DNA from: Nitrospirota bacterium
GTDB taxonomy: Bacteria > Nitrospirota > UBA9217
Reading direction: 5' to 3'
Assembly: GCA_963751455.1 (NCBI GenBank)
Contig: CAVVUN010000003.1
Span: forward strand, 1-64,000
DNA length: 64,000 nucleotides
Shown here piece by piece: positions 33,386 through 54,463 of the stretch. A program made the position numbers and the translations under genes. The notes beneath the pieces are model-generated. The model ran no database searches, was not told where the DNA came from, and was given only the letters and a program-made list of their open reading frames with translations. Each line of letters begins with the position of its first letter. The stretch's first letter is position 1.

Positions 33386-34072
33386 TTATTGTCCCGCGGG
33401 CTTCCGGGAATTGGCTTCGCATGCCATATGGCGGATTACTTTCCCTTTTACCATGTACACAACCATTTCAGCTATATTCGTTGCATGGTCAGCAACGCGC
33501 TCTAAATACTTTGTAATATAGGTGAGCCGAACAGCCCGGGAGATATTTTTTGGGTCCTTCAGCATATACAAAAGCAGCTCGTTGAAGATCTGCTGGTTAA
33601 GATTATCGACAAAATCGTCCGCAGCGCAGACCTGAATCGCAAGGTCCGCGTCCTTCGCAACGAACGCATCAAGGCTGTTTTTCAGCATTTTTTGCGCAGC
33701 CTCGGCCATCCTCGGGATATCGATATACGGCTTAAGAGGCGGCTCCTCATTCAACTCGATTGCGCGTTCGCAGATATCCACTGCAAGGTCTCCCATGCGT
33801 TCAAGGTCCGTGATGATTTTGATTGCCGTGGTAACGAACCGCAGGTTGCTGCCCGTAGGCTGCCAGATGGCCAGAAAGCGGATTGTCTCCTCTTCGATCT
33901 CTACATCGAAGTTATTGACAATGGTATCGCCATTGATCACCTGCAGGGCAAGTTCCCGGTCCCGCTCGACGAGTGCCTTGATCGATTTCCTTATCGCGTC
34001 CTCGACAGCCCCACCCATTTTCAGGATCTGCTCTTTGAGCTTATCGAGTTCCTGTTCTTTTTGTCTGGCCAT
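33386..34072 (-). CDS. phoU: Phosphate signalling protein PhoU
   Basis: TDLERMGD and KYLERVADHATNIAE. Confidence 0.97.
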   Translation of the reverse strand: MARQKEQELDKLKEQILKMGGAVEDAIRKSIKALVERDRELALQVINGDTIVNNFDVEIEEETIRFLAIWQPTGSNLRFVTTAIKIITDLERMGDLAVDICERAIELNEEPPLKPYIDIPRMAEAAQKMLKNSLDAFVAKDADLAIQVCAADDFVDNLNQQIFNELLLYMLKDPKNISRAVRLTYITKYLERVADHATNIAEMVVYMVKGKVIRHMACEANSRKPAGQ

Positions 34073-34156
34073 GGTAACTCCTTGTCAATTGCAAATTTCG
34101 GATTGCGAATTGCGGATTGAAAGGCAAAGGTTTAAGAAGCTTTTATTTCGCATTCT

Positions 34157-34196
34157 GCTTGCGCCCAGCGATTACGAGTGCACGCGAGTGCAGGGT
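34157..34196 (+). repeat. Short copy of the GCTTGCGCCC...GTGCAGGGT element inside a 7-nt (ccgcatt-like) repeat tract
   Basis: gcttgcgcccagcgattacgagtgcacgcgagtgcagggt. Confidence 0.7.
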
Positions 34197-34219
34197 GAAA
34201 TCCGCATTCCGCAATCGGC

Positions 34220-34999
34220 TTACCCAAACCTTCCCGTTATATAATCGTCCGTCTGCTTTTTATCCGGGTTCGTGAATATTTTTTCCGTGGGTCCGAACTC
34301 GATCAGTTCGCCCATGTAGAGAAAGGCCGTCATGTCGGACACACGGGCCGCCTGCTGCATGTTGTGCGTCACAATGATGATCGTGACCCGCTTCTTGAGT
34401 TCGCCAACCAGTTCCTCTATGCGGGTTGTGGCAATGGGGTCCAGGGCCGAGGTGGGCTCATCGAAGAGGATGATCTCCGGGTCCGTGGCAAGGGCGCGGG
34501 CAATGCAGAGCCGTTGCTGCTGGCCTCCCGACAGGTTGAATGCGAGGCTGTGGAGCCGGTCATGCGTCTCCCGCCAGATCGCCGCGTCGCGCAGCGCCTG
34601 TTCCACTTTATCGTCAAGAATGCTTTTCTTGGTCACCCCGCGAACGCGGAGTCCGTAGGCCACGTTTTCATAGATGGATTTGGGGAAAGGATTCGGCTTC
34701 TGAAACACCATGCTGATGCGCATGCGGACCTCAATCGGGTCCACCGCGCGGCTGATGATGTTGACGTTGTCGGGATGAAGGATGATTTCGCCCTCGTAGC
34801 GGTTGCCGTGATACAGATCGTGCATGCGGTTGAAGCAGCGGAGATAGGTCGTTTTCCCGCAGCCCGACGGTCCGATAAACGCGGTCACCTGTTTCTCGGG
34901 GATGGCAAGACTGATGTCCCTGAGGGCATGGACCGTGTTGTAGTAGAAATTCAGGTTTTTTACTTCGGCCTTGATCGCTTTTCCTGCAGTAACAGTCAT
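34220..34999 (-). CDS. pstB: Phosphate ABC transporter ATPase
   Basis: [45 protein letters not shown]. Confidence 0.97.
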
Positions 35000-35015
35000 T
35001 AAAACAGTCCTCACC

Positions 35016-35945
35016 TTACCATTTGATGCGCTTGCGGATTCGGGAACGGAGGTATATGGCCAATGCGTTCATGGCGAGCGTCATCAGAAGCAGAACCACG
35101 CCGGCCGCGGCTGCATTGTGTTGGAACGCCTCCTCGGGACGCGACGTCCAGTTAAACATCTGAATGGGCATTACCGTGAAAGGATCCAGTATCCATTTAA
35201 ACGAAACAAAGGGAAACTCCGGTGTTACAGGCGAATGGGGAAGAAAGGCGATGAAGGTAAGCGCGCCAATGGTGATGATGGGCGCGGTTTCGCCGATGGC
35301 CCGCGACAGCCCGATAATAACGCCCGTCAGGATTCCGCCCGTTGAGTAGGGCAAAACATGGTTCCAGACCGTCTGCCATTTGGTCGCGCCGAGCGCGTAA
35401 GCCGCCTCTCGGATGCTCCCCGGCACCGCCCTGATGGCCTCCCGTGTGGCCACGATCACGACCGGAAGAATCAGCAGCGCCAGAGTCAGGCCGGCAGACA
35501 GGATGCTTTGTCCGAGCCCAAACGTATAAACGAAGAGCCCGAGGGCTAAGAGCCCGTACACAATGGACGGCACGCCGGCAAGGTTCGTGACGTTGATCTC
35601 GATGATCGCGGTGAGCCAATTCTTGCGCGCGTACTCCTCGAGGTAAATCGCCGACGCGATTCCCAGGGGTACCGCCGCAAAGGCCGTCACGAGCATCACG
35701 AGCACGGTCCCGACCCAGGCAGAAAGGATGCCGGCGCTCTCAGCCCTTCGGGACGGGAACGAGGTGAAGAAATCAGCGTTAAACCGCGGCATGCCGTTGA
35801 TGAAAAGCTGGATGAACAGCGCCAGCAGGGTGAGAACACCCAGGAGCATGCAGAGAAAACCGACGACCGCGAAGATATAATCCCATCGTTTGTGACGGGA
35901 AATGATGGCGCGGATCTCTTCCGCTTTTTGCACAATCATCCGCAT
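35016..35945 (-). CDS. pstA: Phosphate ABC transporter permease
   Basis: [33 protein letters not shown]. Confidence 0.96.
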
Positions 35946-35947
35946 CC

Positions 35948-36859
35948 TCAATATACCTCCCTGACACGCTTTTTCAGGATGTAACCGGCGATATTGAAGA
36001 CAAGCGTGATCAGCATCAGGGTAAGCCCGGCTGCAAAGATGGTCTGGTACCCGATGCTGCCGTGAGGCAAGTCGCCAAGGCTCACTTGAACGATGTAGGA
36101 AGTGATCGTGGCGGCCGGCTCCATCGGGTTCCACGTGAGATTCGGCTGCATGCCTGCCGCGATTGCCACGACCATGGTCTCACCCACAGCCCGTGAGATC
36201 CCGAGAATGTATGCAGCCGCAACGCCAGAGAACGCCGAGGGGAATACAACACGCACCGCGGTCTGGAACCGGGTGGCGCCCATGGCATAGGAACCCTCGC
36301 GGATAAACATAGGAACGGCGTGCATGGCGTCCTCACTTACGGAGCTCACGTAGGGCACGATCATGACGCCCATCACGATGCCGGCTGAGAGCATGTTGAA
36401 ACCCGGCAGGTCCGGCATGACCGTTTGTAAAAGCGGTGTGACGAAGACCAGGGCGAAGTAGCCGAAGACCACTGTAGGAACGGCCCCGAGCAGTTCCAGA
36501 AAGGGCTTCACAAGCTCCCGAAGCCTGTGCGGGGCGAATTCGCTCAAATAGATCGCGATGATCGTCCCGAGCGGAATCGCCACGGCAAGCGCCACGCCTG
36601 TCGTCACCAGGGTCCCGGCCACGAGCGGCATGATGCCGTAATGCGCGTTGTCGAAAAGCGGCGTCCACTGCGTGTCGGTCAGAAACTCTTTCAGGGAAAC
36701 TTGCTTGAAAAAGGGAATGGATTCATAAATGAGGATGGCGGCGATAGCGAACGTGGTGAACACCGAGGACAGCGCCGCCAGAAGCAGAATCGCTTCGATC
36801 ACGCGCTCGCGCACGCGCCGGGCGTGTTTCCTGGTGAGTGATTGTTGAGTGCCGTTCAT
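35948..36859 (-). CDS. pstC: Phosphate ABC transporter permease
   Basis: ELLGAVPTVVFG, REGSYAMGATR, SRAVGETM. Confidence 0.96.
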   Translation of the reverse strand: MNGTQQSLTRKHARRVRERVIEAILLLAALSSVFTTFAIAAILIYESIPFFKQVSLKEFLTDTQWTPLFDNAHYGIMPLVAGTLVTTGVALAVAIPLGTIIAIYLSEFAPHRLRELVKPFLELLGAVPTVVFGYFALVFVTPLLQTVMPDLPGFNMLSAGIVMGVMIVPYVSSVSEDAMHAVPMFIREGSYAMGATRFQTAVRVVFPSAFSGVAAAYILGISRAVGETMVVAIAAGMQPNLTWNPMEPAATITSYIVQVSLGDLPHGSIGYQTIFAAGLTLMLITLVFNIAGYILKKRVREVY

Positions 36860-36886
36860 ACTGGTGAAGCTCCGGTTTACAAAACG

Positions 36887-36920
36887 AAAAAGGGCGGGGC
36901 GTCCTTCCGGGCCCCCGCCC
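36887..36920 (-). terminator. GC-rich hairpin plus U-tract between pstS and pstC (partial terminator or mRNA stabiliser)
   Basis: Minus strand gggcgggggc..gccccgccc followed by ttttt. Confidence 0.6.
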
Positions 36921-36944
36921 GAATTACCCGCATGAGCGGGCAAA

Positions 36945-37961
36945 TTAATGCTTGCCTTCCCGTTTCAGCAGCTCCTCCACCGACACACCCACTTCGGGCT
37001 CTCCGCCGAAACCGGTGCCGAGCTTCTTCTGCTTGAAATTTTCTGCGGCCAGCTTGTAGGCTTTGTCAGGCAGGGGCACATACTTCACCTCTGTCACGAG
37101 GCGCGGCGCGTTCTTCAGATAGAATTCCACGAACGCCCTGATCTCGGGCTTTTCCATGGACTTGGCGTTCACGTAAATGAAGATGGGCCTTGAGAGAGGC
37201 TGGTACGTGCCGTTCTTCACCGTATCGAACGAGGGCAATACGGCGGGCCTGCCTGCCTTCTCCACGATCGGTACAGCCTTGAGCTTTTTGCTGTTTTCCG
37301 CGTAGTAGGCATAGCCGAAATATCCGAGGGCAAACTTGTCGCGGGCCACACCCTGGACCAGCACGTTGTCGTCCTCGCTCGCCGTAAAGTCGCCGCGGCT
37401 GGACTTGGACTTGCCCACAACGGCCTCGGTGAAGTAGTCGAAAGTGCCCGAATCAGCGCCGGGACCGTACAGCTTGATCGCCGCATCCGGCCAGGCCGGG
37501 TTCACCTGGTTCCATTTCATGACCGTGCCCTGGGCCTCGGGCGCCCACATTTTTTTAAGTTCCTCCACGGTGATGCTCTTGAGCCAGTCGTTCTTCGGGT
37601 TCACCACAACAGTCAGAGCGTCATAGGCCACCGGCAGCTCGATGTACCGGATTCCGGCCTCCTTGCAGGCATCCATTTCCTTCTTCAGGATAGGGCGCGA
37701 TGCATCGGAGATGTCCGTTTCGTTGCGACAGAACTTCTTAAAGCCTCCGCCCGTGCCCGAAATGCCCACGGTCACTCTGGTGGCGCCCTTTGTCGCCTTC
37801 TGGTACTCCTCCGCTACAGCCTCGGTGATCGGGTATACGGTGCTGGAGCCGTCTATCTTGATGAGCGCCTCCTGGGCCTGCGTTGCTTCGGGTCCAAGGA
37901 TAAACATGGCCGTAAGGGCCACAACAAATGTTAATGCTGTTAACAATGCAATTCTTTTCAT
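36945..37961 (-). CDS. pstS: Phosphate-binding periplasmic protein
   Basis: [30 protein letters not shown]. Confidence 0.96.
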
Positions 37962-37984
37962 TTCTTTCTCCTTCTAGAGTTAAT

Positions 37985-38027
37985 TTTATAGCATGTTAAT
38001 GTTACAGTATTGTTACAAGTTTATAAA
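37985..38027 (-). promoter_or_regulatory. Pho-box-like array plus -10 (pstS promoter)
   Basis: Plus-strand tgttac 38000, tgttac 38011, tataaa 38022 (11-bp period); -10 TATAAA at 37985-37990, 9 nt away. Confidence 0.8.
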
Positions 38028-38194
38028 AATTTTAGAGTCTTTGCGGATCAATTGGGAGCCCGCAGGTCTTTTATCCCTCCTTTCATTTCCCGTAATCCTT
38101 TTGTTTTGATTACCATTACGGGCAATCTTCTCTGCAAGTCAGCTATGTTTTTTCGAGTCTCGCCGCTTGCCTATCCTGTTCATATCTCTTGCGT

Positions 38195-38587
38195 TTATGC
38201 GTTCTTACCTGCCGTCAAGCCGACATGCTCGTTCACTTTTTTTCGCAAGTCGGCGATATTGCCCTTGCAGATATAATCCCTTACACCGTGCAGCGCAACG
38301 CTCTGTCTCAAACTGTCCTCATCGTTCGATGAATAGAAGATGATCGGTGTGTTGCGGGTCCTGTCATTCCCATGAAGCAGTTCCGCCAGGTTGTCCCCGG
38401 AAAGCCCGGGCATGTTGATGTCGAGCAGGACCAGATCGGGCTGCAGCATGTTAACCAGGTTCGTCACCCCGAATCCGCTCTTTTTGGTGATCACCTCTAA
38501 TTCATCATGCTCGAGCAGTTGCTTAGTGGTGTAGAGGTGCAATTCATCATCATCGACTACGAGTACCATTTTCTTATTCCGGGTCAT
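38195..38587 (-). CDS. Single-domain response regulator
   Basis: VVDDD, LLDINMPGLSG, YSS, ICKG. Confidence 0.88.
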   Translation of the reverse strand: MTRNKKMVLVVDDDELHLYTTKQLLEHDELEVITKKSGFGVTNLVNMLQPDLVLLDINMPGLSGDNLAELLHGNDRTRNTPIIFYSSNDEDSLRQSVALHGVRDYICKGNIADLRKKVNEHVGLTAGKNA

Positions 38588-39774
38588 ATAAGCCTCCCTG
38601 TTCTATAGGTTGTATCGGCAAAGAAACGGTAAAGGTCGTGCCTTTGCCGTACGTGCTCGATACCGATATCATACCGTCGATCAACTCGGCCAGATTTTTG
38701 CTGATCGTCAGGCCGAGCCCCGTACCCTGGTGCGTTTTGGTTTTAACGTCCTCAATCTGGCTGAACGCGAGAAACAGCTTATCGAGGTGCTCGTTTCTGA
38801 TACCCAAGCCGGTGTCGCTGACCGAGATTTCCAACCGGCTTCCGACGATGCCGACCTCTATCACAATAGTGCCGGAATCGGTGAACTTTGCGGCATTGCT
38901 CGCGAGGTTCATCAGTATTTGCCTGAGCTTGATGGGGTCCGTAGTTATAGTCAGCGGCAGAGCGGGAACGGAGACTTCTACTTTCACCGGCTTATTTCCG
39001 ATTAGAATGCGCGCTGTCTCCGCAATTTCAGAAACGAGCGGCGAGACCGCAAAGCGGTGCTGTGTTACCTCCATTTTACCGGCCTCTATCTTTGACAGGT
39101 CGAGGATATTGGTTATTATGGTCCTGAGGCCTGTTGCGCTCGAAGATCATGAACGAGAGCCGTTCTTTTATCTGTTCGATCGAGTCTTTTTCCGCGGCCA
39201 TGCGCAGGAGCTCGGCAAGTCCGATGATGGCATTCACGGGCGACCTGAGCTCGTGGGTGACGTTCGCGAGGAACTGCGACTTTACCTGGCTGATCTTTTC
39301 AAGTTCCTGCGCGCGCGCATTCGCCACCTCTTTTTGGAGGATGCTGTTTGCCAGGGCGTTGCTTTGCTGGACCACGAGCTGCTTGACCGACAAGAGGCCG
39401 CGATAGAGCCCCTGGGGACAGGTCACAATAATCTCGTCGTAGATGTCCTGCGGCGGCCGCTCCAGGGCCATGTCGATGACCACGTCGAGCGGTTCGTTCT
39501 CGGTCACGACAAGGGGAGTGGTGTCGGTTATGACGATAACGGGGTGCTTGCCGTAGAGTTCGAAGCCGAACCTCCGGAAGAGGGTGAAGAGCAGCTTCGT
39601 CCGGGTAACCAGGCCGACGGGCTCTTTCCCATCGACCACGGCGATCGCGTCAAGCTCGGTAGTGCTGAAAAACCGCTCGGCCACGCTGTTCACGATGGTC
39701 TGCGGCGTGACCTGGTCTTTCGACGTCAGGAGTTCCCCGACGGGAAGCGCGTGTTCCTGCGTTATTGTGACCAT
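38574..39774 (-). CDS. Cytoplasmic CBS-pair sensor histidine kinase (one frameshift near 39140)
   Basis: CBS-like N-terminus (PVGLVTR..), FLANVTHELRSPVNAIIG H-box; after the shift NILDLSKIEAGK, NLASNAAKFT, DTGLG, GTGLGL. Confidence 0.85.
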
Positions 39775-39989
39775 GTTGTTTCCTTTCTTTCGATATGACA
39801 TTGTCAAACTTTTGCCACAGAGGACACGGAGAGCCCTATTAGCCGCGAAAGAACACAAGGAGCGCAGAGTGATTTAAATCTGAAATATACATTTTGGGGC
39901 CTTTCTTTGAGACTTCGACGAGCTCAGTCGAGTCGTTCTTTGCGTTCTTTTGCGGCCAACGTCAGTAGTTACTCTGTTTTAAAAAATAT

Positions 39990-41078
39990 CTACGCTATCC
40001 CCGCCACAGAGCGCTGCCCGTTCTCACGTATCAATGACACTGTAAACTGAGCCCCTTCTCCCGGATCGCTTACGACCATGATATTTCCTCCCATGGCTTC
40101 TACGAGCAGCTTGACGATGTAGAGCCCGAGGCCCGCCCCCTTGATCTTTTCACTGCCGCCGGCGCGGTAGAATTTATCGAAAATTCTGGGAAGTTCGTCC
40201 CTCCGTATGCCGCATCCTTCATCCTTTATCGTAACTTCCGTCCGATCTTGTCGTTCGTCGAAGTAGATCCAGACTCTGCCTGCCTCGCGGTTGAATTTCA
40301 CGGCATTGGAAAGAAGGTTTACCAGCACCTGCATGAGAGCGGTCCTGTCCGCGCGCACCGGACTCGGCGTACTTTTCATAACAGTTAGTTCTAAATTTTT
40401 TTTAGCTGCCGCATCTCGAAGGATCTCAACCGCGTCATTCGCCGCCTCGACAATATCGATCGGTTCAGACGGCAGCGTGATTCCTTCCTTCTCAAGACGG
40501 GTGAGCAGCGAAAAGTCGTTCAGGAGGCTTTGAGCGTGTACAGCGGCGGTGTTTATCGTTCTGAGATGCCTCTGCCCGTTATCGCTTCTGAGGGCAAGCG
40601 ATGAAAAACCGCCGATCGCGGTAAGGGAGTTTCTCACTTCATGGACAATATATCGGAGAGAGGTTTCGTGCTCCTGCTCCCTGGCCTGGAGCTGCTTGAT
40701 CACCTCTTGCCGGTCGACATATTTCCGTATCTTGAGCAGGACTTCTCTGATGGAAAAAGGCTTTGAAATAAAATCGTCGGCTCCCAGGCCCAGCCCCTTG
40801 ATGCGCGCCTCTTCACCGGACAGCGCCGTCAGCATGACGATCGGCACAGCCCGGCCCTTGGAGCTTTCGCGGAGAATGCGGCACACCTCCCACCCGTTCA
40901 GCTCCGGCATCATGATGTCCAGGAGCACTACCGCAGGCATGTTGCACTGCACGGCGTCTATTGCTTCTTCGCCGTTTCGCGCAAGCGCCGTCTGATAGTT
41001 TGCTTTCTCGAGGTTATAGCGGAGCAGTTCCACTATGTCATCTTCATCTTCAACGATAAGAATCAGTTCATCTTTCAT
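39990..41078 (-). CDS. Receiver-histidine kinase hybrid (PhoB-like REC + HisKA + HATPase)
   Basis: IVEDEDDIVELLRYNL..LDIMMP..MLTA..GADDFISKPF; HEVRNSL; NLLSNAVKF, DEGCG, GAGLGL. Confidence 0.9.
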   Translation of the reverse strand: MKDELILIVEDEDDIVELLRYNLEKANYQTALARNGEEAIDAVQCNMPAVVLLDIMMPELNGWEVCRILRESSKGRAVPIVMLTALSGEEARIKGLGLGADDFISKPFSIREVLLKIRKYVDRQEVIKQLQAREQEHETSLRYIVHEVRNSLTAIGGFSSLALRSDNGQRHLRTINTAAVHAQSLLNDFSLLTRLEKEGITLPSEPIDIVEAANDAVEILRDAAAKKNLELTVMKSTPSPVRADRTALMQVLVNLLSNAVKFNREAGRVWIYFDERQDRTEVTIKDEGCGIRRDELPRIFDKFYRAGGSEKIKGAGLGLYIVKLLVEAMGGNIMVVSDPGEGAQFTVSLIRENGQRSVAGIA

Positions 41079-41115
41079 GCGTTATCCCCGGCTGCATTAT
41101 TAGTTTACAACCTGC

Positions 41116-41169
41116 ATTTTAATGTGTTTTTGTTACGGCAATATGAAGGGTATGTTACATGTTGGTTAC
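41116..41169 (-). promoter_or_regulatory. Pho-box-like array plus -10
   Basis: tgttac 41131, tatgaa 41142, tgttac 41153, ggttac 41164; -10 TAAAAT at 41116-41121. Confidence 0.75.
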
Positions 41170-41211
41170 GACCGGCACGGAGCCGGGGAGGGCTGAGCGT
41201 GCGCTAATCGA

Positions 41212-41778
41212 TCAGGGATGCACTTCATACAATTTTATTTGTTTCGACTTGTCCGTGTCAGGAAGTTTCAGTATGTGATCAGCCGAAGGCAAAATGATTT
41301 CGATGATTGTACCTTGGCCGACCTTGCTTGAAACTGTGAGAGTGCCGCCCAGAGCCTTGATCCTGATTCCGATGCCGGGCACTGCATCGTCTTGCTTGTC
41401 GTTGTTATGATCGGCGCCGATCATCGCTGAAACCTCTTCCGCTTTCATGCCTCGTCCCGTATCCGTGACGGTCAGCCTGATATTGTCCTTCTCGCTGTTC
41501 AGAATCAGCGCGATCCTTCCGCGATCGGTGAATTTCGCAGCATTGTCCATAAGTTCGGTCAATATCCGCCTCACCATCTCCCGGTCAGAGGATATGACAA
41601 CCGGGCCCGGAGAAGCAGCATCCATCACGGTGACCCGCTTTTTCCCGATGGACTCGCGGGTGGCCTGAGTGACTTCCTGGAGCAGCGAAACGAGATCGAA
41701 GTGGACGTAGGCGGGATGAAGCGGCAGCCCCGCCTTACTCCTGAAGGACGGTAATTTTTCGGTCGTGTGCATGGACAT
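41212..41778 (-). CDS. Stand-alone, partly degenerate HATPase_c protein with no H-box
   Basis: ELMDNAAKFT (N box), DTGRG (G1), eroded F/G2 region, GQGT; AAGGAG RBS before ATG 41778. Confidence 0.7.
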   Translation of the reverse strand: MSMHTTEKLPSFRSKAGLPLHPAYVHFDLVSLLQEVTQATRESIGKKRVTVMDAASPGPVVISSDREMVRRILTELMDNAAKFTDRGRIALILNSEKDNIRLTVTDTGRGMKAEEVSAMIGADHNNDKQDDAVPGIGIRIKALGGTLTVSSKVGQGTIIEIILPSADHILKLPDTDKSKQIKLYEVHP

Positions 41779-41978
41779 CTCCTTTTGACAGATTGACGGT
41801 GAGTGCCTGTTTGCAAAACAATACTCTTCCGGCAAGCGCTTTCAGCGAGAACGAACTCCACATCCGGTCCGCCATGCCGGCTATCGGGAACAAGAGAAGG
41901 CATCCGGCGGAAGCCAGGATCAGCTCGATCATGTTCATCCTCAGGGCACTCACTGCTGCACGATTCGACGCATACTTT

Positions 41979-43103
41979 CTATTCTCTGACAAAGCTCAGG
42001 TCCTCCTTCAGCGGCACCGGGCAAGGCCGGCCAGGCGCTGCTGTACCCGCAGGCGTCTGATCAGTCCGGCACGATCTCCTCCGAGCCAGGCCGAAGAACA
42101 GTGAAAGGATGGCAGCGGACAACGTGTGGAGATAGAAGGTGAAAAAGCGCCAACCCATCGTGACCACTCCGAGCGCGCCCACAGGCAGGAACGGCATATA
42201 CAGGAGCGAGAAAAAGATCTCAGCTCCTCCGGCGCCTCCGGGGCTCGGCACCAGGATCGTGAGCGCAAAGACAAGGACCTGGAGCACCATGAACAGCAGG
42301 GGCTGGACCGGGATCCCGAGGCTTATCAGGAGCAGGGATATGATCGAGTAGCGGCAGGTCCATTGGACCGAGGTCAGGACCAGGGTGAGGACCAGCACCT
42401 TCTTCCCGCCCCGCCCTATCAAGCGAAAGGTCTGCTGAAATGTCCAGAAAGCGGCCAGTACCTTTTCCCTTATCGTCCCCATCCTCGCCCTTCTCTTCCA
42501 GCCTAATGCAAGGACCAGGAGGACCAGACAGAGAGACACGAAGAGCGCTCCGATCCACCACGCACCATGCGGGAGCCTGACGATGCCGGCCTGCCGGGGC
42601 AGATCCCATGACGTGGATACCGTGAGCGCCGTCGGGACCATGATCAGGAAGAACAGGGCGTCCTCCAGGTTTTCGAGAACAGGCAGGGAAATGGCCGTTC
42701 CCGGGTCCAGTCCCCGGTTCATCAGCATGCCGATCTTGACAGCGCCTCCGCCGATCACGGGAGGCGCGATCGCCGCGCCCAGGTCCGCCATGATAACGAT
42801 CTCGAAAGCATCACGATAGGTGAGCGGCTGCCCAAGGAACCTGCTCCAGGTGAACAGCCTGAGGGAACCAGTGAACCACGGCACGATGCTCAGCAGGGCG
42901 GCGAGAAGAAGGAACCCGGGATGAAAATGAACGAGCGACGCCAGCGTCTGTTTGTCTGTCATGACCAGACAATACACCACGTTCCCGATGATGCCCACGG
43001 GTATGAGGATCAGCAGTTTTCGGAGGATTCTGTTGATGCGGTCCGGGACCGGGACCGGTTGCAGCGGCCTCTCCTTGTCCGATTTACGACAGACGCTGTT
43101 CAT
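41979..43103 (-). CDS. Lysylphosphatidylglycerol-synthase TM-region / flippase-like membrane protein
   Basis: Multi-TM; PPVIGG, PSPGGAGGAE and WRFFTFY motifs typical of this family. Confidence 0.8.
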   Translation of the reverse strand: MNSVCRKSDKERPLQPVPVPDRINRILRKLLILIPVGIIGNVVYCLVMTDKQTLASLVHFHPGFLLLAALLSIVPWFTGSLRLFTWSRFLGQPLTYRDAFEIVIMADLGAAIAPPVIGGGAVKIGMLMNRGLDPGTAISLPVLENLEDALFFLIMVPTALTVSTSWDLPRQAGIVRLPHGAWWIGALFVSLCLVLLVLALGWKRRARMGTIREKVLAAFWTFQQTFRLIGRGGKKVLVLTLVLTSVQWTCRYSIISLLLISLGIPVQPLLFMVLQVLVFALTILVPSPGGAGGAEIFFSLLYMPFLPVGALGVVTMGWRFFTFYLHTLSAAILSLFFGLARRRSCRTDQTPAGTAAPGRPCPVPLKEDLSFVRE

Positions 43104-44931
43104 AGCATTCCGATCGTATGGCCCGGTGATAAGCGAGAAAGGACCGGGTTCCTTCCTTTCCCAGGTATCGTTCCAGCATCTTCGGTTCGGTCTTTGTAAG
43201 GTCCACCATGATCAGGCCGTCCAGGACATTCCCGAAGGCGGGATCGACATTGAACCCGATGATTTCTCCGCCCAGCTTCAGATATTGCTTCAACAGGATC
43301 GGTATCCCCTTTCGATCGCTTTCCATGGAGGAAATCAGTTCAGACATATCATCGATGTCGTCCTTCGCCGGACGGAGAGCTGCATCGATGTCCCAGCCTT
43401 TTACGGGCTTTGTCCTCAGAGGCCGTCTGGGCTTCACGAATACGGCCATATCGTCCCGGTATCTCGTCATTTTGAGGAACCGCACGATCAGCTCTTTTGA
43501 CAGCGCCTGGTATTCATTGGTAATGCTGACCGGCCCGAACAGGGTCCGGTATCGGGGACTGTCGACCATATATCTGCCGATGCCTTTCCATAACAGCAGG
43601 AGCGGCGCGTAGGAACGCTGGTATTCAGGCCGGATAAACGAACGGCCGAGTTCCAGGGCGGGTCCGAGCCGCTTCAGGAACTCGTGGTCGTAGCGGAAGA
43701 GAGTGCTGGTGTAAATCCCGCGTATGCCCTGTTTTCGGACCAGCTCATCACTCAGGCCGAGCCGGTAGGCGCCTACCACTTCCTGTTTGACCCTGTTCCA
43801 GATGAACAGGTGAACATAGGTCCGGTCGTAGCCGTCTATATCCAAGGCGTTTCCTGTTCCTTCGCCGACTGCGCGAAAAGTGATCTCCCGAAGCCGTCCG
43901 ATTTCGAGCAGCACATTCGGGATCTGGTCTGCCGTGGCCTGGATCACAACGTTCTCGCCGTTCTCGACAAGGGTCTGACTCGGAGCCAGGCGGGAGACCT
44001 CCTCTTCAAGGACGAGCGGAGGCTGCGGCGGTATCACGGGCCTGCTCGCCTGTTTCTGCTGCAAAGCGACGCTCCCCGGGACTGCAGGTTCAGGCACTCG
44101 ATGCTCCAGTATGTAGGTCCGCATGCGAAGATATTCCATCATCTCATCGTCCGGGCCCATCCCGCTCAGTTTCTCGAATGGGACCATGTCTCCGATTCTG
44201 ACCCGTATCTTTTTCCGGTTTTTGTTCAGCAGCTCATTCGGCAGCATTGCAGTGCGCAGCAGGGGATGGACCATGCCGGCCATATGGAAAACCGCGCTGT
44301 TCGTTCCCCGGAAGAACAGCGGAAGTACCGAAGCGCCGGTTTTCCTGATGATTCGCGCGATCGAGGGGCTCCAAGCCGGATCGGTAATAGCGCCTTTCTG
44401 CAGATCGAAACGGGAAACTTCGCCGGACGGGAAGACGACGAGCATGTGGCCGCTCTTGACCCAGTGGATGCATTCCCTGATCGGTCCGATGTTCTCTTTG
44501 ATCGCGGAATCCTGTTTGAAGGGATTGACCGAAATAAGCAGGTCGCGCATCTCGGGGATGCAGTTTAGCAGAGAATTTGCCATGAACTTTACATCACAGC
44601 GCAGGGTACGGAGGATCGATGCGAGAACAATGCCTTCAATGCCCCCGAAGGGATGGTTTGCCACCACGAGGACAGTGCCCGTTGCGGCCTGCAGTATCGC
44701 AAGGTCCTTTTCTTCCAGATCGCACGTTACATTGAGCTTATCAAGCACCTTATCCGGGAATGGGCGGCTGTCCTTCATGCCCGTGATCTCGGCATAAGCG
44801 AGATTCAGCCGGGGAAAGGCAAGGAAGTGCTCGATGGGACCTCGCATCATCGAAAATAATTTATTCTGCAAAGGGTCTTTGAAGTTGATATCCAGGCTGA
44901 AGATGCGGTTTATTTTTATCTGTTCCAGCAT
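43084..44931 (-). CDS. Bifunctional PlsC-type O-acyltransferase + OlsB-type GNAT N-acyltransferase (OlsF-like amino-acid lipid synthase)
   Basis: VANHPFGGIEG, VFPSGEVS; EIGRLREITFRAVGEG, VGAYRL, LELGRSF, LLWKGIG, PILLKQYLKLG. Confidence 0.85.
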   Translation of the reverse strand: MLEQIKINRIFSLDINFKDPLQNKLFSMMRGPIEHFLAFPRLNLAYAEITGMKDSRPFPDKVLDKLNVTCDLEEKDLAILQAATGTVLVVANHPFGGIEGIVLASILRTLRCDVKFMANSLLNCIPEMRDLLISVNPFKQDSAIKENIGPIRECIHWVKSGHMLVVFPSGEVSRFDLQKGAITDPAWSPSIARIIRKTGASVLPLFFRGTNSAVFHMAGMVHPLLRTAMLPNELLNKNRKKIRVRIGDMVPFEKLSGMGPDDEMMEYLRMRTYILEHRVPEPAVPGSVALQQKQASRPVIPPQPPLVLEEEVSRLAPSQTLVENGENVVIQATADQIPNVLLEIGRLREITFRAVGEGTGNALDIDGYDRTYVHLFIWNRVKQEVVGAYRLGLSDELVRKQGIRGIYTSTLFRYDHEFLKRLGPALELGRSFIRPEYQRSYAPLLLLWKGIGRYMVDSPRYRTLFGPVSITNEYQALSKELIVRFLKMTRYRDDMAVFVKPRRPLRTKPVKGWDIDAALRPAKDDIDDMSELISSMESDRKGIPILLKQYLKLGGEIIGFNVDPAFGNVLDGLIMVDLTKTEPKMLERYLGKEGTRSFLAYHRAIRSECYEQRLS

Positions 44932-45073
44932 GGGTGGCTCCTTTTTGCAATTTATCTAAAGCATTCGGACACGGATCAAATCGGATTTACACGGATGATT
45001 TCGAGATTTATCGCTTTTTTTATTCGTGGTTATCCGTCATCTGTGGTTATTACTTTTTAAGTACACAGTCGTG

Positions 45074-46309
45074 CTATGCAAACCGCGCCCGGATAACGTC
45101 CGTGATCCGGTATCCCCATGACCAGAAGCCGGTCTCCGGGCAGGGCGACAAACGTGAATCCTTGCCGATCAGGTACCGGTTCCCGCGCCACACAACGGTT
45201 GCGCTCAGAAGCGGCACGAACCAGACGAGCCCAATGATGATGTCTTTGAGCGGGACAAGGAAGTAGGCGAAGGGAGACTGCTGAGAGAAGCTGTGAATAG
45301 TGCGCTGCGTTTCAATGCTCTTTCCCATGATTAAGTCTCCGAGAACCTTGATCAAACTTATGAACGCGGCAAAGGAAAGCGTGGTCCTTGACGGCCCGCT
45401 TGCAATGACCGGAATAACGGCAACAAAGACGGGATTTGCAAGGATCTCGGAGAAATATTTGAGCCCGCCGATCTTCCACCTGAGCTTGCCCCATCTCGTG
45501 TGGCGATTCAAAAAGCGCTTCACGTCCCAGTATTCGTTGACGTTGCTGATAAGGTAATTCGACAGCGCCACTTTTTTGCCTGCCCTGCTCATTTCACGGC
45601 CGATGATGAAATCTTCGGCCAGGATGTCCTTGAAGGTTTCGAGCCCGCCGATCGCCTGCAGATCGTCTTTTTTCATGAGCATGGACTTCCCGACCACACA
45701 GGGCATGCCCAGGAAGCGGTCAAGGAAGCTGATGCTCCCGATGACAAATGAGTTCAAGTGCAGGTTCTCGAGGATCGCGCCGAGGCTGCGACCGCCCACG
45801 CCGCGGATCAGGTTGCTTACCAGCCCCACGGACGGGTCCTGAGTGTGGCGCGCGATCTCCCGAAGGTAATCCGGCCCGACCATGACATTGCTGTCGCTGA
45901 TCAGGACGTAGGGGTGGCGGCTTTTCCGATATGCCGGGATGAGGTTGTTTACCTTGGGATTCAACCCCAGGCTGCAGCGTTCCACGATGATCGTGATGTT
46001 CGTGTCCGGGTGCTTGTCCTGTACTTTTTTAGCTACTTTAAAGGCCGGGTCATTGTGGTCCTGAAGGCCGAAGAGAATTTCATACTCGGGGTAGTCCTGG
46101 GTGCAGAAGCTTGAGAGGTTGTCAAAGAGATTGTCGTCAAGGCCTCTCAACGGCTTGAGAATCGAAACCGGCGGCAGCACGTCCGAGGCCGGGGCTTGAG
46201 CGGAATCTTTCTTGTCTTTCCTGACAAGTGAACAGGTTGCGTACACCTGAATCAGGTAAAGCACAATCCCAAGCGTTGCGACAGCAGTGCATATGAGAAA
46301 GATAAGCAT
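45074..46309 (-). CDS. GT21 ceramide-glucosyltransferase/HpnI-like lipid glucosyltransferase
   Basis: N-terminal TM, SILKPLRG, NPKVNNL, ISDSN, GKSM, LAEDF, RHTRW, VVWRG. Confidence 0.85.
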   Translation of the reverse strand: MLIFLICTAVATLGIVLYLIQVYATCSLVRKDKKDSAQAPASDVLPPVSILKPLRGLDDNLFDNLSSFCTQDYPEYEILFGLQDHNDPAFKVAKKVQDKHPDTNITIIVERCSLGLNPKVNNLIPAYRKSRHPYVLISDSNVMVGPDYLREIARHTQDPSVGLVSNLIRGVGGRSLGAILENLHLNSFVIGSISFLDRFLGMPCVVGKSMLMKKDDLQAIGGLETFKDILAEDFIIGREMSRAGKKVALSNYLISNVNEYWDVKRFLNRHTRWGKLRWKIGGLKYFSEILANPVFVAVIPVIASGPSRTTLSFAAFISLIKVLGDLIMGKSIETQRTIHSFSQQSPFAYFLVPLKDIIIGLVWFVPLLSATVVWRGNRYLIGKDSRLSPCPETGFWSWGYRITDVIRARFA

Positions 46310-46348
46310 GGGGTTCCTCCATTATGGTGTTTTTGGACCGAGGCAACC

Positions 46349-46390
46349 GCCTGCGCCCAGCGTTTACGAGTGATATTGCGAGTGCAGGGT
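46349..46390 (+). repeat. Internally deleted copy of the dispersed element, inside a GGCAAC/GTTGCC hairpin
   Basis: The first ~22 nt match the long copies; ends gagtgcagggt. Confidence 0.75.
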
Positions 46391-46469
46391 GTGTTGCCGT
46401 GAATTCTTTTGGCCCCGAAAAAACGACAAAGACATTAAAGCACGCCGACGCGGTCGGCTTGCTCCAAAA

Positions 46470-47162
46470 TTAATTCCTGAACAGCGTGATGGCCACACCC
46501 TTGTTATGCCTGATGCAGTTTTTAACCGCATCGACGTTTTTCTCGCAGTTAAGCAGCGTTTTCCAGGAGTAAAGGTGCCGCGCCTTGTGAAAATCGCTGT
46601 TCGCGATGTAGGGATACTTTTTCAAGCTGATGACGTTGAACACGTCGTCACGGTTTGCTATTTCCCAGGCATCGATATACTTCGCGTACTTGTCACGGTT
46701 GTTCCAGAGAAAAAGCGTGTCTTTATTCATCAGGTCCGGGGTATGGTGAGGGTGACACGCGACTGTCAGCGCATCCTGTCTTTTCGCGTCGAGAAAGATC
46801 TGTTCATAGTCCATGCATGCGGGGATGAACTCTTTGATGTCGAGGAGCAGGAGGTGGGCTGATCTCTCTTTGGTAACGTAATTCTTGCTGATTTCAACGC
46901 CCGGGATCACGAGCATGCCATACTTTTCCCTTGCCCGCTCGGCTTCCGCCCGGATTGTTGCCAGGTATTCGTCGAAATTGTCGCCCCGGACCGACAGGTT
47001 AAACTTATGAGCGAATTTACCGATCGAGTTGTCGCCGTTTACTACGTGGTCCGTAATTGCAATCGCATCGAATCCCGCCTGGCCGAAAAGATCGATGGTC
47101 TTTCTCATCTCAAGGGAACCGTCTGAAAATGTCGTGTGTATGTGAAAATCACACAATATCAT
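46470..47162 (-). CDS. PHP-family metal-dependent phosphoesterase
   Basis: DFHIHTTFSDG, AITDH, PGVE, CHPH, ANSDFH. Confidence 0.9.
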   Translation of the reverse strand: MILCDFHIHTTFSDGSLEMRKTIDLFGQAGFDAIAITDHVVNGDNSIGKFAHKFNLSVRGDNFDEYLATIRAEAERAREKYGMLVIPGVEISKNYVTKERSAHLLLLDIKEFIPACMDYEQIFLDAKRQDALTVACHPHHTPDLMNKDTLFLWNNRDKYAKYIDAWEIANRDDVFNVISLKKYPYIANSDFHKARHLYSWKTLLNCEKNVDAVKNCIRHNKGVAITLFRN

Positions 47163-47169
47163 TGTCATG

Positions 47170-47223
47170 ATGATACCGTTCGCCGGTTACGACAACGTTA
47201 CGGGAATATTAAGTTTCGGTTAC
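47170..47223 (-). promoter_or_regulatory. Pho-box-like array plus -10, probably a leaderless transcript
   Basis: ggttac 47185, cgttac 47196, tattaa 47207, ggttac 47218; -10 TATCAT at 47170-47175; ATG at 47162. Confidence 0.72.
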
Positions 47224-47249
47224 AACGCTTTTTTTATGCTGAAGGATTG

Positions 47250-47279
47250 AAAAAAGTATGGGGCGGTTTCCCGCCCCAC
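47250..47279 (-). terminator. Intrinsic terminator after the porin gene
   Basis: Minus strand gtggggcgg-gaaa-ccgccccat then acttttttt-like tract. Confidence 0.75.
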
Positions 47280-47341
47280 GAGAGGGAAGAATATGGAAGG
47301 CGATTTAACGCCCTCCACCGGATGAAGGTATTGGGACGTAT

Positions 47342-48508
47342 TTAGAAGCTGTAGTTTACGCCGAAAGATATGACAGACGGATCTTCATCCGCCGCCGGTT
47401 TGTACGCTCCGCCGGCACCGCTCTGTCCCAGACCGTATGTGGCGCCCGCATCGTTGTCCGTGGCTGCGTACAGTACGTATGCGGTTGTGCGCTTTGAAAA
47501 GGCATGGTCCAGGCCGACTGCCATAAAGGTTGCGCCGGTCTTGGCTGTTGATTCGCCGTCGTCAGCGTTTCCGTAGGCGAGCTTGATCGTCTCGCTGCCG
47601 AGTTTCTGGCTGACCGCAATATAAACTGCGTCGCGGGTGTTTGTGGAATTCGCTAAGTCGCTTTCGAGGGTTTCGAAGACAAGTCCGAGCTTGGTACCGC
47701 CGAACGCATAGCCTGCGCCCAGTTTCGTGCCCGCTACGGTTGTGGCGACGGAATCAGACAGCAGTGTTGTAGTCCCGTTCTTGTGGATCTCATGCGCTAG
47801 AGCGAGAGCCAGCGGTCCTGATTTGTAGACTGCCGCGGCAGAGTAGGCGCTCGCGTTGGAATTGATGCCGTTGCTCGATTCAGTCCCGGTCAAAACAGCC
47901 GCTACGCTGACCTGGACCCCGCCCAGACTGGGTGATGTATAGGCAATCAGGTCAATGGGCCGAAGGTCGAAGATGGTGGATCCATTTACGTTGCCGATAA
48001 TAGCATTGTAGTCACCCATAGAGTCGCCGAACGCATCAAACTGGCCGGTCGCGGTCTTGTAAGGCGTATCATGCGTGCCGAAGAGCACGGTGCCGAAGCC
48101 GCCTTTGAGGCCGAGGTAGGTGTTGCGGAGCGAAAGAGTGTTCACGCTTGTCGTGCTGACAGCGCCGGTAGTCGTATTGGTTACACCCGTGGCCACCGTT
48201 GAAGTCGAGCCGTCCATGTTGATCCCAAGTTCCAGCTGGTACACGGTGCTCAGGCCGTTGCCCAGGTCCTCGGCGCCCTTGAACCCGAGACGCGAAGAGT
48301 TCGATGACGCCTTGAACAGGTCGGTGTCCGCCCCCACAACCTTGCTGCCGGTGTCGATCATGTCTACGGACAATTTTGCAGCGCCGTAGACCTGGAGGGC
48401 GCCGGTTGGCGACGGCTTATCAACATCCACTATTTCGTGTGCTGCAAAAGCCGTTATTGCCATACAGTTTACTGCGAGAACTGCGACTGCTGCTAAAACT
48501 CTTTTCAT
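47342..48508 (-). CDS. Gram-negative outer-membrane porin
   Basis: Signal peptide, SRLGFKGAEDLGNGL, RNTYLGLKGGFG, FSKRTTAY, C-terminal Phe. Confidence 0.92.
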   Translation of the reverse strand: MKRVLAAVAVLAVNCMAITAFAAHEIVDVDKPSPTGALQVYGAAKLSVDMIDTGSKVVGADTDLFKASSNSSRLGFKGAEDLGNGLSTVYQLELGINMDGSTSTVATGVTNTTTGAVSTTSVNTLSLRNTYLGLKGGFGTVLFGTHDTPYKTATGQFDAFGDSMGDYNAIIGNVNGSTIFDLRPIDLIAYTSPSLGGVQVSVAAVLTGTESSNGINSNASAYSAAAVYKSGPLALALAHEIHKNGTTTLLSDSVATTVAGTKLGAGYAFGGTKLGLVFETLESDLANSTNTRDAVYIAVSQKLGSETIKLAYGNADDGESTAKTGATFMAVGLDHAFSKRTTAYVLYAATDNDAGATYGLGQSGAGGAYKPAADEDPSVISFGVNYSF

Positions 48509-48593
48509 TCTACTTCCTCCCCTGTTTAATTAATTTAAATCCGGACGTCCGGAACTCTGAGAACCTGGTTTAGCAATCAAATAAAGTGAGATA

Positions 48594-48647
48594 ATTATAA
48601 AGACAATCTGTTACAGGAAAATGAAGAAAGTATTACATTTTTGTTAC
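48594..48647 (-). promoter_or_regulatory. Pho-box-like array plus consensus -10 (porin promoter)
   Basis: tgttac 48609, aatgaa 48620, tattac 48631, tgttac 48642; TATAAT at 48594-48599. Confidence 0.8.
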
Positions 48648-49906
48648 ATGTTCGACCGGCTCTGAATGAGGTAGGCGTAATAGGTAGCGGCAAAGGTTGG
48701 CGTGCGCTCAAGGGTTTCGAAGTCCACGCGGTAGAGTCCGAACCGTGCGTCCAGGCCTTGCAGCCATTCGTAGTTGTCTATCAGGGTCCAGTAAAAGTAT
48801 CCCCTCACGTTAAGCCCGTCGCGCAGGCATTTTTCAACCACGTCGACGTGCTTTTTCATATACTTGACTTTTTCCTCGGTATCATGAGACGCGATGCCGT
48901 TTTCCGTAATATAAAGCGGCAGGTTGAGGCGAGACGCGTACCGGAGGACTTTTTCGAGACCGCGCGGATGGATCTCCCATCCCATACTGCTCAGGCCGTG
49001 GCCGTCGATGTCCAAGTGCCGAAGCTCGACGCCCATTTTCTTGAAAGGATTGAAACGGAGGTGAATGCGGGTGTAGTAATTGATGGCGAAGAAATCGAGC
49101 TTGCCCTTTATCGGTATCTCGATCTCCACAGGTTTGCTGAAGGGAAACTTGATGACGAAGATCCCGGTCTGGAAGGCATTAATGATCGAGTGGTTGTAGA
49201 AATAGTTGGCTGTCTTCTTGAGCAGCCGGTCCAGAGGGTTCCATTGCTTCCAGGGGGCGAAGACCGACATGTTGTGGGCCATGCTGACCTGGGCCTCCGG
49301 AACGTATTGGCGGATGATATCATAGGCCTTGCCGTGACAGGTGAAGATATGCTTCAGGGCCAGCAGCGAACTCGGCACGTCGCGCATACCGGGCGGCGTG
49401 CAGCCTTCGAGATAACCGCCCAGCACTATTACATACGGTTCATTGAAGGTGAGCCAATAGCGAACACCCTTGAGCGTCGAAGCCATCATCTCTGTGTAGC
49501 GAAGGAACTTATCGATCGACGAGCTTCGGTGCCAAGGGGACCGTTCCTGGAACCAACGTGGGTTGGTGAAGTGATGGAGTGTTACCATGGGCTCGATATT
49601 GTAGCTTCTGACAATGTCGATGATCTCCTGGTAGTGCGCGATCGCTTCTTCATCCCAGGTGTCCGGGCGCGGCTGGATCCTGCTCCATTCAAGCGAGAAC
49701 CGGTAAGCATTGACGCCGAGTTCCTTAAGGAGCTTAAGATCTTCCCGGAAACGCAGGTAATGATCCGTTATATATGGTTTATCGGCCAGTGCCGGGTCCC
49801 AGGTCGTCCAGTCCGCATTAGGAGCGCCTTCAAGCTGAAAAGCGGAAGTTGCAACGCCCCATTGGAAACCGGCTGGAAATATCTTTTTCTTCTTTTGTTC
49901 GTTCAT
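48644..49906 (-). CDS. Glycoside hydrolase family 1 beta-glycosidase (cytoplasmic)
   Basis: WGVATSAFQLEG, YRFSLEWSRI, TFNEP (acid/base), ITENG (nucleophile), WTLIDNYEW. Confidence 0.95.
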   Translation of the reverse strand: MNEQKKKKIFPAGFQWGVATSAFQLEGAPNADWTTWDPALADKPYITDHYLRFREDLKLLKELGVNAYRFSLEWSRIQPRPDTWDEEAIAHYQEIIDIVRSYNIEPMVTLHHFTNPRWFQERSPWHRSSSIDKFLRYTEMMASTLKGVRYWLTFNEPYVIVLGGYLEGCTPPGMRDVPSSLLALKHIFTCHGKAYDIIRQYVPEAQVSMAHNMSVFAPWKQWNPLDRLLKKTANYFYNHSIINAFQTGIFVIKFPFSKPVEIEIPIKGKLDFFAINYYTRIHLRFNPFKKMGVELRHLDIDGHGLSSMGWEIHPRGLEKVLRYASRLNLPLYITENGIASHDTEEKVKYMKKHVDVVEKCLRDGLNVRGYFYWTLIDNYEWLQGLDARFGLYRVDFETLERTPTFAATYYAYLIQSRSNM

Positions 49907-49964
49907 ATGGAAGGCCGCCTGTTAAAGCCATTTGTGCGCGCTTATAAAATATTTCATGTGCGTC

Positions 49965-50018
49965 ATTGTGCCCCGTTTTTATTACAGGAGCATTACAAAG
50001 GGGTTAAGATTCCGTAAA
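49965..50018 (-). promoter_or_regulatory. Pho-box-like array plus weak -10 (GH1 promoter)
   Basis: tattac 49980, cattac 49991, ggttaa 50002, cgtaaa 50013; -10 CACAAT at 49965-49970. Confidence 0.6.
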
Positions 50019-50719
50019 AGACAAATATCCTTTTCAAGTAAATAATTTCGTGGTACCGTACCAATAACACTACGGCAGCCTGCGGTCATTCCTGCGGGAG
50101 AAAAAAAAGATGAAAATAGCGGTATTCGGAGACATCCATGGAAATATAGACGCCCTTATTGCCGCGTTCAATGAGATGCTTCGGATCAAGACGGACAAAA
50201 TGTACCACCTCGGCGATCTCGGCGGGTATGCTCCCTTCGTGAACCAAGTCGTGGATTTTCTGATCGAACACAACATCGAAGGCGTGCAGGGGAACTACGA
50301 TTATAATGTGGCGCACAACAGCGAACATTGCGGCTGCAAGTACGAGGACCCCGTTCAGGCGGAGCTTGCGGAAAGGTCTTTTGCATGGACCAAGGAGCAT
50401 GTTTCGGACAAAGGCCGGGAATACCTGCGCGACCTTCCTCTTAACCTTAATCTTTCAATTGAGGGCAGGAATGTAATCCTCTTTCACGCATCTCCGCACA
50501 AGAACAATCTCTACTGGTATGAGGACCGGCCGGAAAAGTTCTTTCATGAAATGGCGGATAAGGTGAAAGCCGATGTCCTGATCTACGGCCATACTCATAA
50601 GCCCTACAGAAAAGAACTTAACGGGAAGATCTTTATTAACGCTGGAAGTGTGGGAAAGCCCAAGGATGGCGACCCAAGGGCATGCGCTGCGGTTGTCGAG
50701 ATCGCGCAAGAAGGCATTA

Positions 50720-54399: not shown

Positions 54400-54420
54400 A
54401 TATATCTCCTTCCTGCCTAG

Positions 54421-54463
54421 CGACATCTGTCATTATATTAACGAATATTGTCGTAATTGTCAA
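54421..54463 (-). promoter_or_regulatory. Sigma70 promoter of the TA operon with TGTC/GACA repeats (possible autorepression operator)
   Basis: TTGACA(54463-54458)-17nt-TAATAT(54440-54435); gacatctgtc palindrome. Confidence 0.55.

Follow-up and report, generated by a model that had tools for sequence, protein, structure and literature searches.

In E. coli, Pho boxes are built from tandem 11-nt repeat units (PMC4415409) that keep a strict spacing to the core promoter (PMC10294691), with pstSCAB-phoU, psiE, phoA and phoH among the targets, and in Desulfovibrio vulgaris the box of PhoB (DVU1083) has the core (c/t)GT(n)AC and is worded as a 6-bp unit separated from the next by 4 bp, with pstS-C-A, phoU and EAL/HD genes as targets (PMC3333781). 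Control by phosphate also extends to membrane lipids. GT4, GT21 and GT28 are glycoglycerolipid synthase families, with Pgt belonging to GT21, and in the plcP-transferase operons of Alphaproteobacteria and SAR11, PlcP releases diacylglycerol (DAG) (PMC8231724), while pgt and olsB carry predicted Pho boxes (PMC3972451). The phosphorus-free lipids of D. alaskensis G20 need Agt (Dde_3613) and OlsF (Dde_3661) (PMC5193443), and in Caulobacter, an organism with Spt, the lipid glycosyltransferases Sgt1 and Sgt2 are under PhoB control (PMC6445935). Here we describe a locus that resembles each of these systems in some respect, located on the minus strand of contig CAVVUN010000003.1 of a Nitrospirota bacterium (assembly GCA_963751455.1). 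Within the window, i.e. the whole stretch of 64,000 nt that was analysed, positions 33386 to 50018 hold five Pho-box-like arrays heading phosphate-uptake, kinase, porin, glycosidase and lipid genes, which very likely form a PhoB regulon. The regulatory logic would be that of an ordinary, textbook PhoB system; the less ordinary part is a PlcP-less module of a PHP phosphoesterase, a GT21 glycosyltransferase and a GH1 glycosidase, together with an OlsF-like enzyme. No description of a Pho or PhoB regulon in Nitrospirota was found in the literature, which was searched mostly without subscription papers or supplements.

All five arrays consist of minus-strand GTAAC-type hexamers with an 11-bp period, and each is anchored here at the plus-strand low coordinate of its last hexamer. 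In minus-strand order, from right to left, they head exactly five gene blocks: GH1; porin; PHP, GT21, OlsF-like, flippase-like and HATPase-only; REC-kinase, CBS-kinase and REC; and pstS, pstC, pstA, pstB and phoU. The GH1 array (49980-50018) reads TTTACG, TTAACC, GTAATG, GTAATA and is followed by a -10 hexamer CACAAT (49965-49970); the porin array (48609-48647), which overlaps the GH1 stop codon, reads GTAACA, GTAATA, TTCATT, GTAACA, followed by TATAAT (48594-48599); that of the PHP-GT21 operon (47185-47223) reads GTAACC, TTAATA, GTAACG, GTAACC, followed by TATCAT (47170-47175); that of the REC-kinase operon (41131-41169) reads GTAACC, GTAACA, TTCATA, GTAACA, followed by TAAAAT (41116-41121); and the pstS array (38000-38016) consists of two GTAACA hexamers, followed by TATAAA (37985-37990). 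The original prediction had given every one of these genes three to four hexamers repeating every 11 bp. The period and four of the arrays agree with this, but pstS has two good repeats, its next upstream position being TTTATA. One or two positions are degenerate (TTAAC, TTCAT, TTTAC) in each of the four-position arrays. The predicted starting points, and the exact 9-nt gap between the last hexamer and the -10, were borne out in all five cases. The E. coli Pho box ends 10 nt before the -10, and the heptamer here does likewise, whereas the core is TGTAAC rather than CTGTCAT. A sigma70 scan for -35/-10 promoters, which as a whole performed at chance level (10 found versus 10.2 expected), listed none of the five arrays, no -35 being good enough.

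Position weight matrices were scanned over the genome and its relatives; with a matrix trained on relatives the five arrays came out first in the genome, and they are kept in relatives. With leave-one-out matrices made from the other four, each array scored 25.8-39.5 and ranked 3rd to 6th genome-wide, and with the matrix from all five the best site outside the cluster scored 20.5. A 56-bp matrix derived from 221 sites in relatives, a training set chosen with the window's half-site matrix and hence partly circular and not fully independent, gave the five arrays 50.3, 48.6, 47.5, 44.5 and 20.4 bits, the next site in the whole genome reaching 14.6. None of 10,000 shuffled spacers from the cluster reached 20 bits with this matrix. 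Two regular-expression forms gave five matches in the 5.72-Mb genome, four of them being these arrays; the fifth, at C9:337866 before a pilin-like gene, was recovered by neither matrix and was rejected. A degenerate pattern found 3-11 sites in each of five genomes and its reversed form none in all five. No further regulon member above 14.6 bits was detected in this genome with the 56-bp matrix, a scan that members without a box would escape. Unlike the regulon of D. vulgaris, the strong sites here all fall within one 12-kb stretch and have a lipid operon, a porin gene and kinase genes as targets; confinement to a single cluster is not general, since genomes G027, G032 and G034 have some of their sites at a great distance from it.

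Conservation was followed in 80 loci around PHP orthologues of Nitrospirota relatives, many on short contigs, an array being counted when it scored at least 20 within 260 nt of a gene; as these genomes are kin, the counts are a description of conservation, not a series of independent trials. Arrays precede PHP in 68 of 78 loci, the REC-kinase gene in 18 of 21, pstS in 6 of 7 and the porin gene in both cases, with lower counts for GH1 (7/56), the CBS-kinase gene (3/20) and pstC (1/4). None was found before the internal genes, namely GT21 (0/75), OlsF-like (0/26), flippase-like (0/17), HATPase-only (0/19), REC (0/25), pstB (0/16) and phoU (0/15), and periods of 9 and 13 gave zero throughout. GH1 is often a later gene of its unit, with an array within 1.5 kb in 33 of 52 loci. 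When 251 arrays were scored without a -10 term, TAnnnT stood at a gap of 9 in 175, against 28 and 23 arrays for the next best gaps. At the 80 loci, GT21 occurs 77 times, GH1 57, a pstC-like gene 31 and OlsF-like 28, and PHP itself is present in 27 of 37 family genomes and in 59 of the 201 phylum genomes searched, the latter including this one. The targets of 305 arrays in relatives, with the downstream open reading frame (ORF) picked heuristically, include the PstS cluster (26), PsiE (17), PhoA-type alkaline phosphatase (2) and, once each, PhoX, PhoH, an OlsB-like enzyme and a PHP-GT4 fusion; as in D. vulgaris, EAL/HD genes are also found among them. A separate observation concerns small proteins of 69-103 aa, several of them cysteine-rich, each with its own array in relatives (examples are L048:7371-7577, L044:9646-9918, L090:7125-7337, L076:6585-6794, L100:12499-12807 and L044:8983-9210; clusters, in that order, 27, 11, 11, 5, 6 and 11), for which Pfam gave nothing beyond a weak zinc ribbon and DUF3562.

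Three OmpR-type proteins exceed the PF00486 cut-off in the genome. All lie outside the window, in line with the earlier statement that it encodes no winged-helix PhoB. The best family of the protein at C3:89879-90562 is PhoB (TIGR02154, 280.7 bits), and those of the remaining two are CusR-like and KdpE. The phoB-like gene precedes a phoR-like gene, the pair (C3:87993-90562) lying 38-40 kb beyond GH1, on the contig and strand that carry the cluster. In 25 of the 80 related loci a phoB orthologue (at least 58%) is found within 10 kb of PHP, and some relatives have phoR 26-61 nt before GH1. A PhoB regulon fits the sequence data best, and PhoB very likely reads the arrays, because the motif is like the Desulfovibrio box, phosphate genes are targets in relatives and phoB is a syntenic neighbour of the cluster there; on the same grounds, the idea of one shared Pho-type regulon is upheld. 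PhoB~P would, with high probability, bind head-to-tail over the -35 region and recruit the sigma70 polymerase at phosphate exhaustion. In contrast to E. coli, no sense-strand array precedes phoB (0/22). Instead, an inverted two-repeat box (TTTAAC..TGTAAC) lies on the opposite strand of C3, ~52 nt before the point where the phoB-like gene starts (90562), and a similar inverted site occurs in 6 of 22 relatives, in five of these 53-55 nt from the phoB start, possibly reflecting autoregulation or a divergent promoter.

Behind the PHP gene follow the genes for a GT21 lipid glycosyltransferase (45074-46309; PF13506, 157.9 bits; DSN, LAED and RHTRW motifs), a 615-aa OlsF-like bifunctional acyltransferase, a putative aminolipid synthase (43084-44931), and an LPG_synthase_TM membrane protein resembling MprF-type flippases (41979-43103; PF03706; TIGR00374, 78.2 over a cut-off of 43.2). 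The GT21 gene is the second behind the PHP array and so a Pho-boxed member of the GT4, GT21 and GT28 families. In the OlsF-like protein both domains (PF19576 and PF13444) are present, and NF052615 scores 413.3 (cut-off 620) versus 141.5 for GlsB. The probable products are a glycolipid for the GT21 enzyme and an aminolipid of the ornithine type for the OlsF-like one, and the flippase-like protein probably moves one of them. The enzyme scores 262.4 with the HpnI model (cut-off 310). A hopanoid role was considered and rejected: a hopene cyclase (TIGR01507) over cut-off is lacking in this genome and was found in only 6 of 28 GT21 carriers, and in G002, G019 and G034 it is separate, 32%-identical paralogues that have shc less than 6 kb away. 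The GH1 beta-glycosidase (48644-49906) has intact TFNEP and ITENG motifs, and its best single-domain match in the PDB is 1VFF (BGPh; E 9e-80), a membrane-associated enzyme acting on long-alkyl glucosides (PMC4687101).

At low phosphate, PhoB~P would thus turn on phosphate uptake, a kinase relay, the porin, the glycosidase and the lipid operon, and the latter would likely swap phospholipids for phosphorus-free lipids; GH1 might conceivably turn over glycolipid, and the CBS-domain kinase might at most be suspected of relaying the adenylate state. Taken as a whole, this combination of PhoB-switched units and lipid replacement seems to us a probable explanation, and the earlier description of the genes as unrelated does not hold, since most would belong to one phospholipid-replacement module. 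As in the PlcP-Agt and PlcP-Pgt systems, a metallo-phosphoesterase gene, here under predicted Pho control, is followed by a lipid glycosyltransferase gene and accompanied by ornithine-lipid synthesis (PMC8231724, PMC3972451), which here is putative, but the phosphoesterase has the PHP fold and is no calcineurin-like PlcP, the genes of a flippase-like protein and a BGPh-like GH1 are added, and the mRNA is likely leaderless. With TIGR01854 (LpxH/PlcP-like), which is the LpxH model and only a proxy for PlcP, no match was found in this genome or in five of five relatives, a Caulobacter control being positive. The likeness to D. alaskensis would lie in an anaerobe replacing phospholipids with a glycolipid and an ornithine lipid at low phosphate (PMC5193443), whereas here the transferase is of GT21 rather than GT4 and the genes are clustered with pst and phoBR. 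From Caulobacter Sgt1/Sgt2, likened by description (PMC6445935), the difference is that no ceramide pathway was found in 7 of the 28 genomes with this GT21.

The PHP phosphoesterase (46470-47162) is of the TM0559 type. The first ATG of its ORF here overlaps the end of the -10 spacer; homologues, 229-230 aa in length, begin at the second one (47162), which lies 7 nt downstream of TATCAT. An array is found within 80 nt of PHP in 66 of 80 loci, and in 47 of these 66 the ATG stands 22-23 nt past the last hexamer (7-8 nt past the -10); a Shine-Dalgarno-like word precedes PHP in only 1 of the 66. The same geometry occurs in 31 of 33 close-knit deltaproteobacterial-type metagenome loci, the pattern having been written after these were viewed. 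The PHP mRNA is likely leaderless, judging from this arrangement. The predicted fold (predicted local distance difference test, 93.4) has a template-modelling score of 0.90 to TM0559 (2ANU), with a sequence match of E 1e-60, and the metal ligands H7, H9, D14, H39, E90, H103, H137, D190 and H192 are retained in 44-49 of the 49 sequences aligned. Longer homologues number 854 at E <= 1e-20; among the best 120 of them, inspected by eye, 109 contain a monogalactosyldiacylglycerol (MGDG) synthase domain (PF06925), their identity across the full PHP being 47-50%, and most of those with a name come from Verrucomicrobiota. A PHP-GT21 fusion was seen in one sequence only (P0178). In one relative a PHP-GT4 fusion (L060:4552-6936) stands behind an array, its start 8 nt after the -10, and this relative has no GT21 beside its TM0559-type PHP. 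In 80 more distant metagenome loci, GT21 follows PHP in 47 and GT4 in one (L180), with GH1 nearby in 42 and a PhoB-like gene in 25. The pairing of PHP with three unrelated transferase families (GT21, GT28 and GT4) points to a shared need, most simply DAG. By this guilt by association, and by analogy with PlcP in Proteobacteria, we tentatively assign PHP the job of yielding DAG by taking the head group with its phosphate off phospholipids or phosphatidic acid, an assignment whose chances we put close to, though short of, even. More tentative still is the wider proposal that TM0559-type PHPs might be a second class of phospholipase C, or of phosphatidate phosphatase, that serves in phosphate starvation and is unrelated to the first, feeding DAG to GT21, GT28 and GT4 synthases in anaerobic Nitrospirota, Deltaproteobacteria and Verrucomicrobiota, that with a BGPh-like GH1 they could allow a reversible phospholipid-glycolipid exchange, and that the regulon might be a genetic source of the unexplained monoglycosyl diether and ceramide lipids associated with Thermodesulfovibrionia in phosphate-poor subsurface fluids.

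Several observations weigh against the picture drawn here. The score of the PhoB-like protein lies below the curated cut-off (296.2), and the period of 11 with usually four positions departs from the period of 10 worded for D. vulgaris (PMC3333781). Conservation is lowest for the GH1 promoter among the five, and the OlsF-like gene is found in only 28 of the 80 loci, with its score under the cut-off. The absence of PlcP was judged through a proxy model, a substrate of TM0559-type PHPs was not found in the literature searched, and some of the other distant PHP loci are without a transferase or lie beside ppx, pstC or phoU, while in L198 and L209 a metallophosphoesterase and acyltransferases follow PHP. 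The genome also holds an Spt-like gene. Moreover, phoR and the CBS-kinase gene are each split by a frameshift in the assembly, 4 of 28 loci tested in this genome being split; 16 of 18 relatives have the CBS kinase as a single ORF. The frameshifts are likely sequencing errors, but a genuine lesion of phoR could leave this strain with a silent regulon.

One alternative is that PHP acts as a soluble phosphate scavenger, on released head groups, nucleotides or sugar phosphates, with no action on membrane lipid. Its characterised fold neighbours, among them RNase AM, histidinol phosphatases and 2YB1 from Chromobacterium with AMP bound, use substrates that are soluble or nucleic acids, and the distant loci next to ppx, pstC or phoU, in which no lipid transferase was detected, would fit as well. 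Against this stand its partners in three lipid glycosyltransferase families (the GT21 neighbour, the GT28 fusion and the GT4 neighbour in L180) and the fact that no PlcP-like gene was found that could supply DAG, so that we consider such scavenging somewhat unlikely. A search for PHP proteins with a phospholipase C or lipid-renovation role, made mostly without subscription papers or supplements, found none.

It could also be that, under the same PhoB regulon, GT21 glycosylates ceramide to give a starvation glycosphingolipid, with GH1 as a glycosylceramidase. GT21 is the ceramide glucosyltransferase family and Pgt accepts ceramide weakly (PMC3972451), sgt1 and sgt2 belong to the Caulobacter PhoB regulon (PMC6445935), and Thermodesulfovibrionia in phosphate-poor serpentinite fluids correlate with monoglycosyl diether lipids and with monoglycosyl ceramides (PMC10667739). 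This genome carries an epimerase-Spt-acyltransferase-like operon (L133; C7:18152-22219) and a frameshifted copy (L134; C1:60376-64296). The best model of the Spt-like gene is NF047600, at 568 bits, and the third gene of the operon is found in 21 of 28 genomes with a GT21 orthologue. However, the Spt-like score is below the cut-off of 640, and the 375-aa third gene has no NCBIfam match and is a putative ceramide synthase by gene order. Matches to this putative ceramide synthase are missing from 7 of the 28 GT21 carriers, including the single-contig G032 and the 97-98% complete G012, G018 and G024, and the PHP partner is elsewhere fused to DAG-type GT28 enzymes. A ceramide acceptor is therefore unlikely and DAG is favoured.

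That another OmpR-type regulator, CusR-like or KdpE-like, reads the arrays, or that the signal is other than phosphate, would agree with the low PhoB model score, and OmpR-family proteins commonly bind 10-11-bp direct repeats; but the targets are pstS, psiE, phoA-type, phoX and phoH, no array above 14.6 bits precedes kdp or CusR-like loci, and phoBR is syntenic with the cluster, making it very improbable. Chance repeats, suggested by the AT-rich spacers and degenerate hexamers, are refuted by the controls, given the top genome rank, the period and strand specificity, the conservation and the fixed -10 gap.

With the motif, the regulon can be called with precision in cultured Thermodesulfovibrionia, and the lipid operon supplies candidate enzymes for phosphorus-free lipids in deep anaerobes; the monoglycosyl diether lipids and ceramides of serpentinite fluids have been reported without a known pathway (PMC10667739). 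It also provides a testable function for a PHP family that has had a structure in the PDB since 2005 and no substrate. Should PHP replace PlcP, surveys that use plcP as a marker of lipid renovation would miss these lineages.

The remaining genes of the cluster are those of phosphate uptake, signalling and the porin. pstS (36945-37961; TIGR02136, 319.2 over 206.6), pstC (35948-36859; TIGR02138, 267.1 over 196.45), pstA (35016-35939; TIGR00974, 293.3 over 193.45), pstB (34220-35002; TIGR00972, 380.9 over 343.2) and phoU (33386-34072; TIGR02135, 230.9 over 130.25) all exceed their model cut-offs. A GC-rich hairpin with a T run lies 3' of pstS (36881-36920; fold of 36880-36945, -36.3 kcal/mol) and may be terminator-like or stabilising. 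The kinase operon encodes a REC-HisKA-HATPase hybrid kinase (39990-41078, by domain matches), the CBS-HisKA-HATPase kinase (38574-39774, split near 39144) and a stand-alone receiver (REC) protein (38195-38587; PF00072). The HATPase-only, kinase-like ORF (41212-41835) that ends the lipid operon is missing the first ~113 residues relative to the relative compared; its relatives have mostly 260-310 aa and, by eye, a HisKA-like helix without the histidine, and the protein is possibly a pseudokinase. The Gram-negative porin gene (47342-48508; PF13609, 149 bits) has an intrinsic-terminator-like hairpin at its 3' side (47258-47279).

The original prediction had called the cluster an island. In the sense of a mobile element this is not supported, since the gene order is conserved across the family, PHP is widespread in it (see above) and the GC content is 0.544 against 0.525 for the contig; mobility genes amount to one transposase on one side only, and the sequence comparison indicates that the cluster is lineage-conserved. 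Transposases, a toxin-antitoxin pair and porin and GH1 gene fragments lie between GH1 and phoBR. Pieces of the porin, GH1 and metallophosphoesterase genes found beyond the window, near phoBR (C3:84043-84556 and 78052-78165), suggest that a rearrangement split phoBR from the cluster. Divergent from GH1 is a YfcE-type metallophosphoesterase gene (50110-50802, plus strand), which directly follows GT21 in several relatives and whose end is overlapped by an IS630-like transposase ORF (50746-51783). Short intergenic elements at 34088-34216 and 46331-46472 have copies on several contigs. Further minus-strand features of the window are a RES-Xre toxin-antitoxin pair (53483-54426), a ParA-like ATPase gene between two ORFs without a Pfam match (59418-62578), possibly a defence module, and two PhnD-like substrate-binding protein genes (17181-18110 and 23539-24405; TIGR01098 over cut-off), both inside a chemotaxis operon with three methyl-accepting chemotaxis proteins and with no Pho array detected before them. 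Finally, acsC-like, methylenetetrahydrofolate reductase-like and hdrABC genes at 791-14802 (minus strand) suggest that the organism is an anaerobe whose metabolism is of the Wood-Ljungdahl and Hdr kind.

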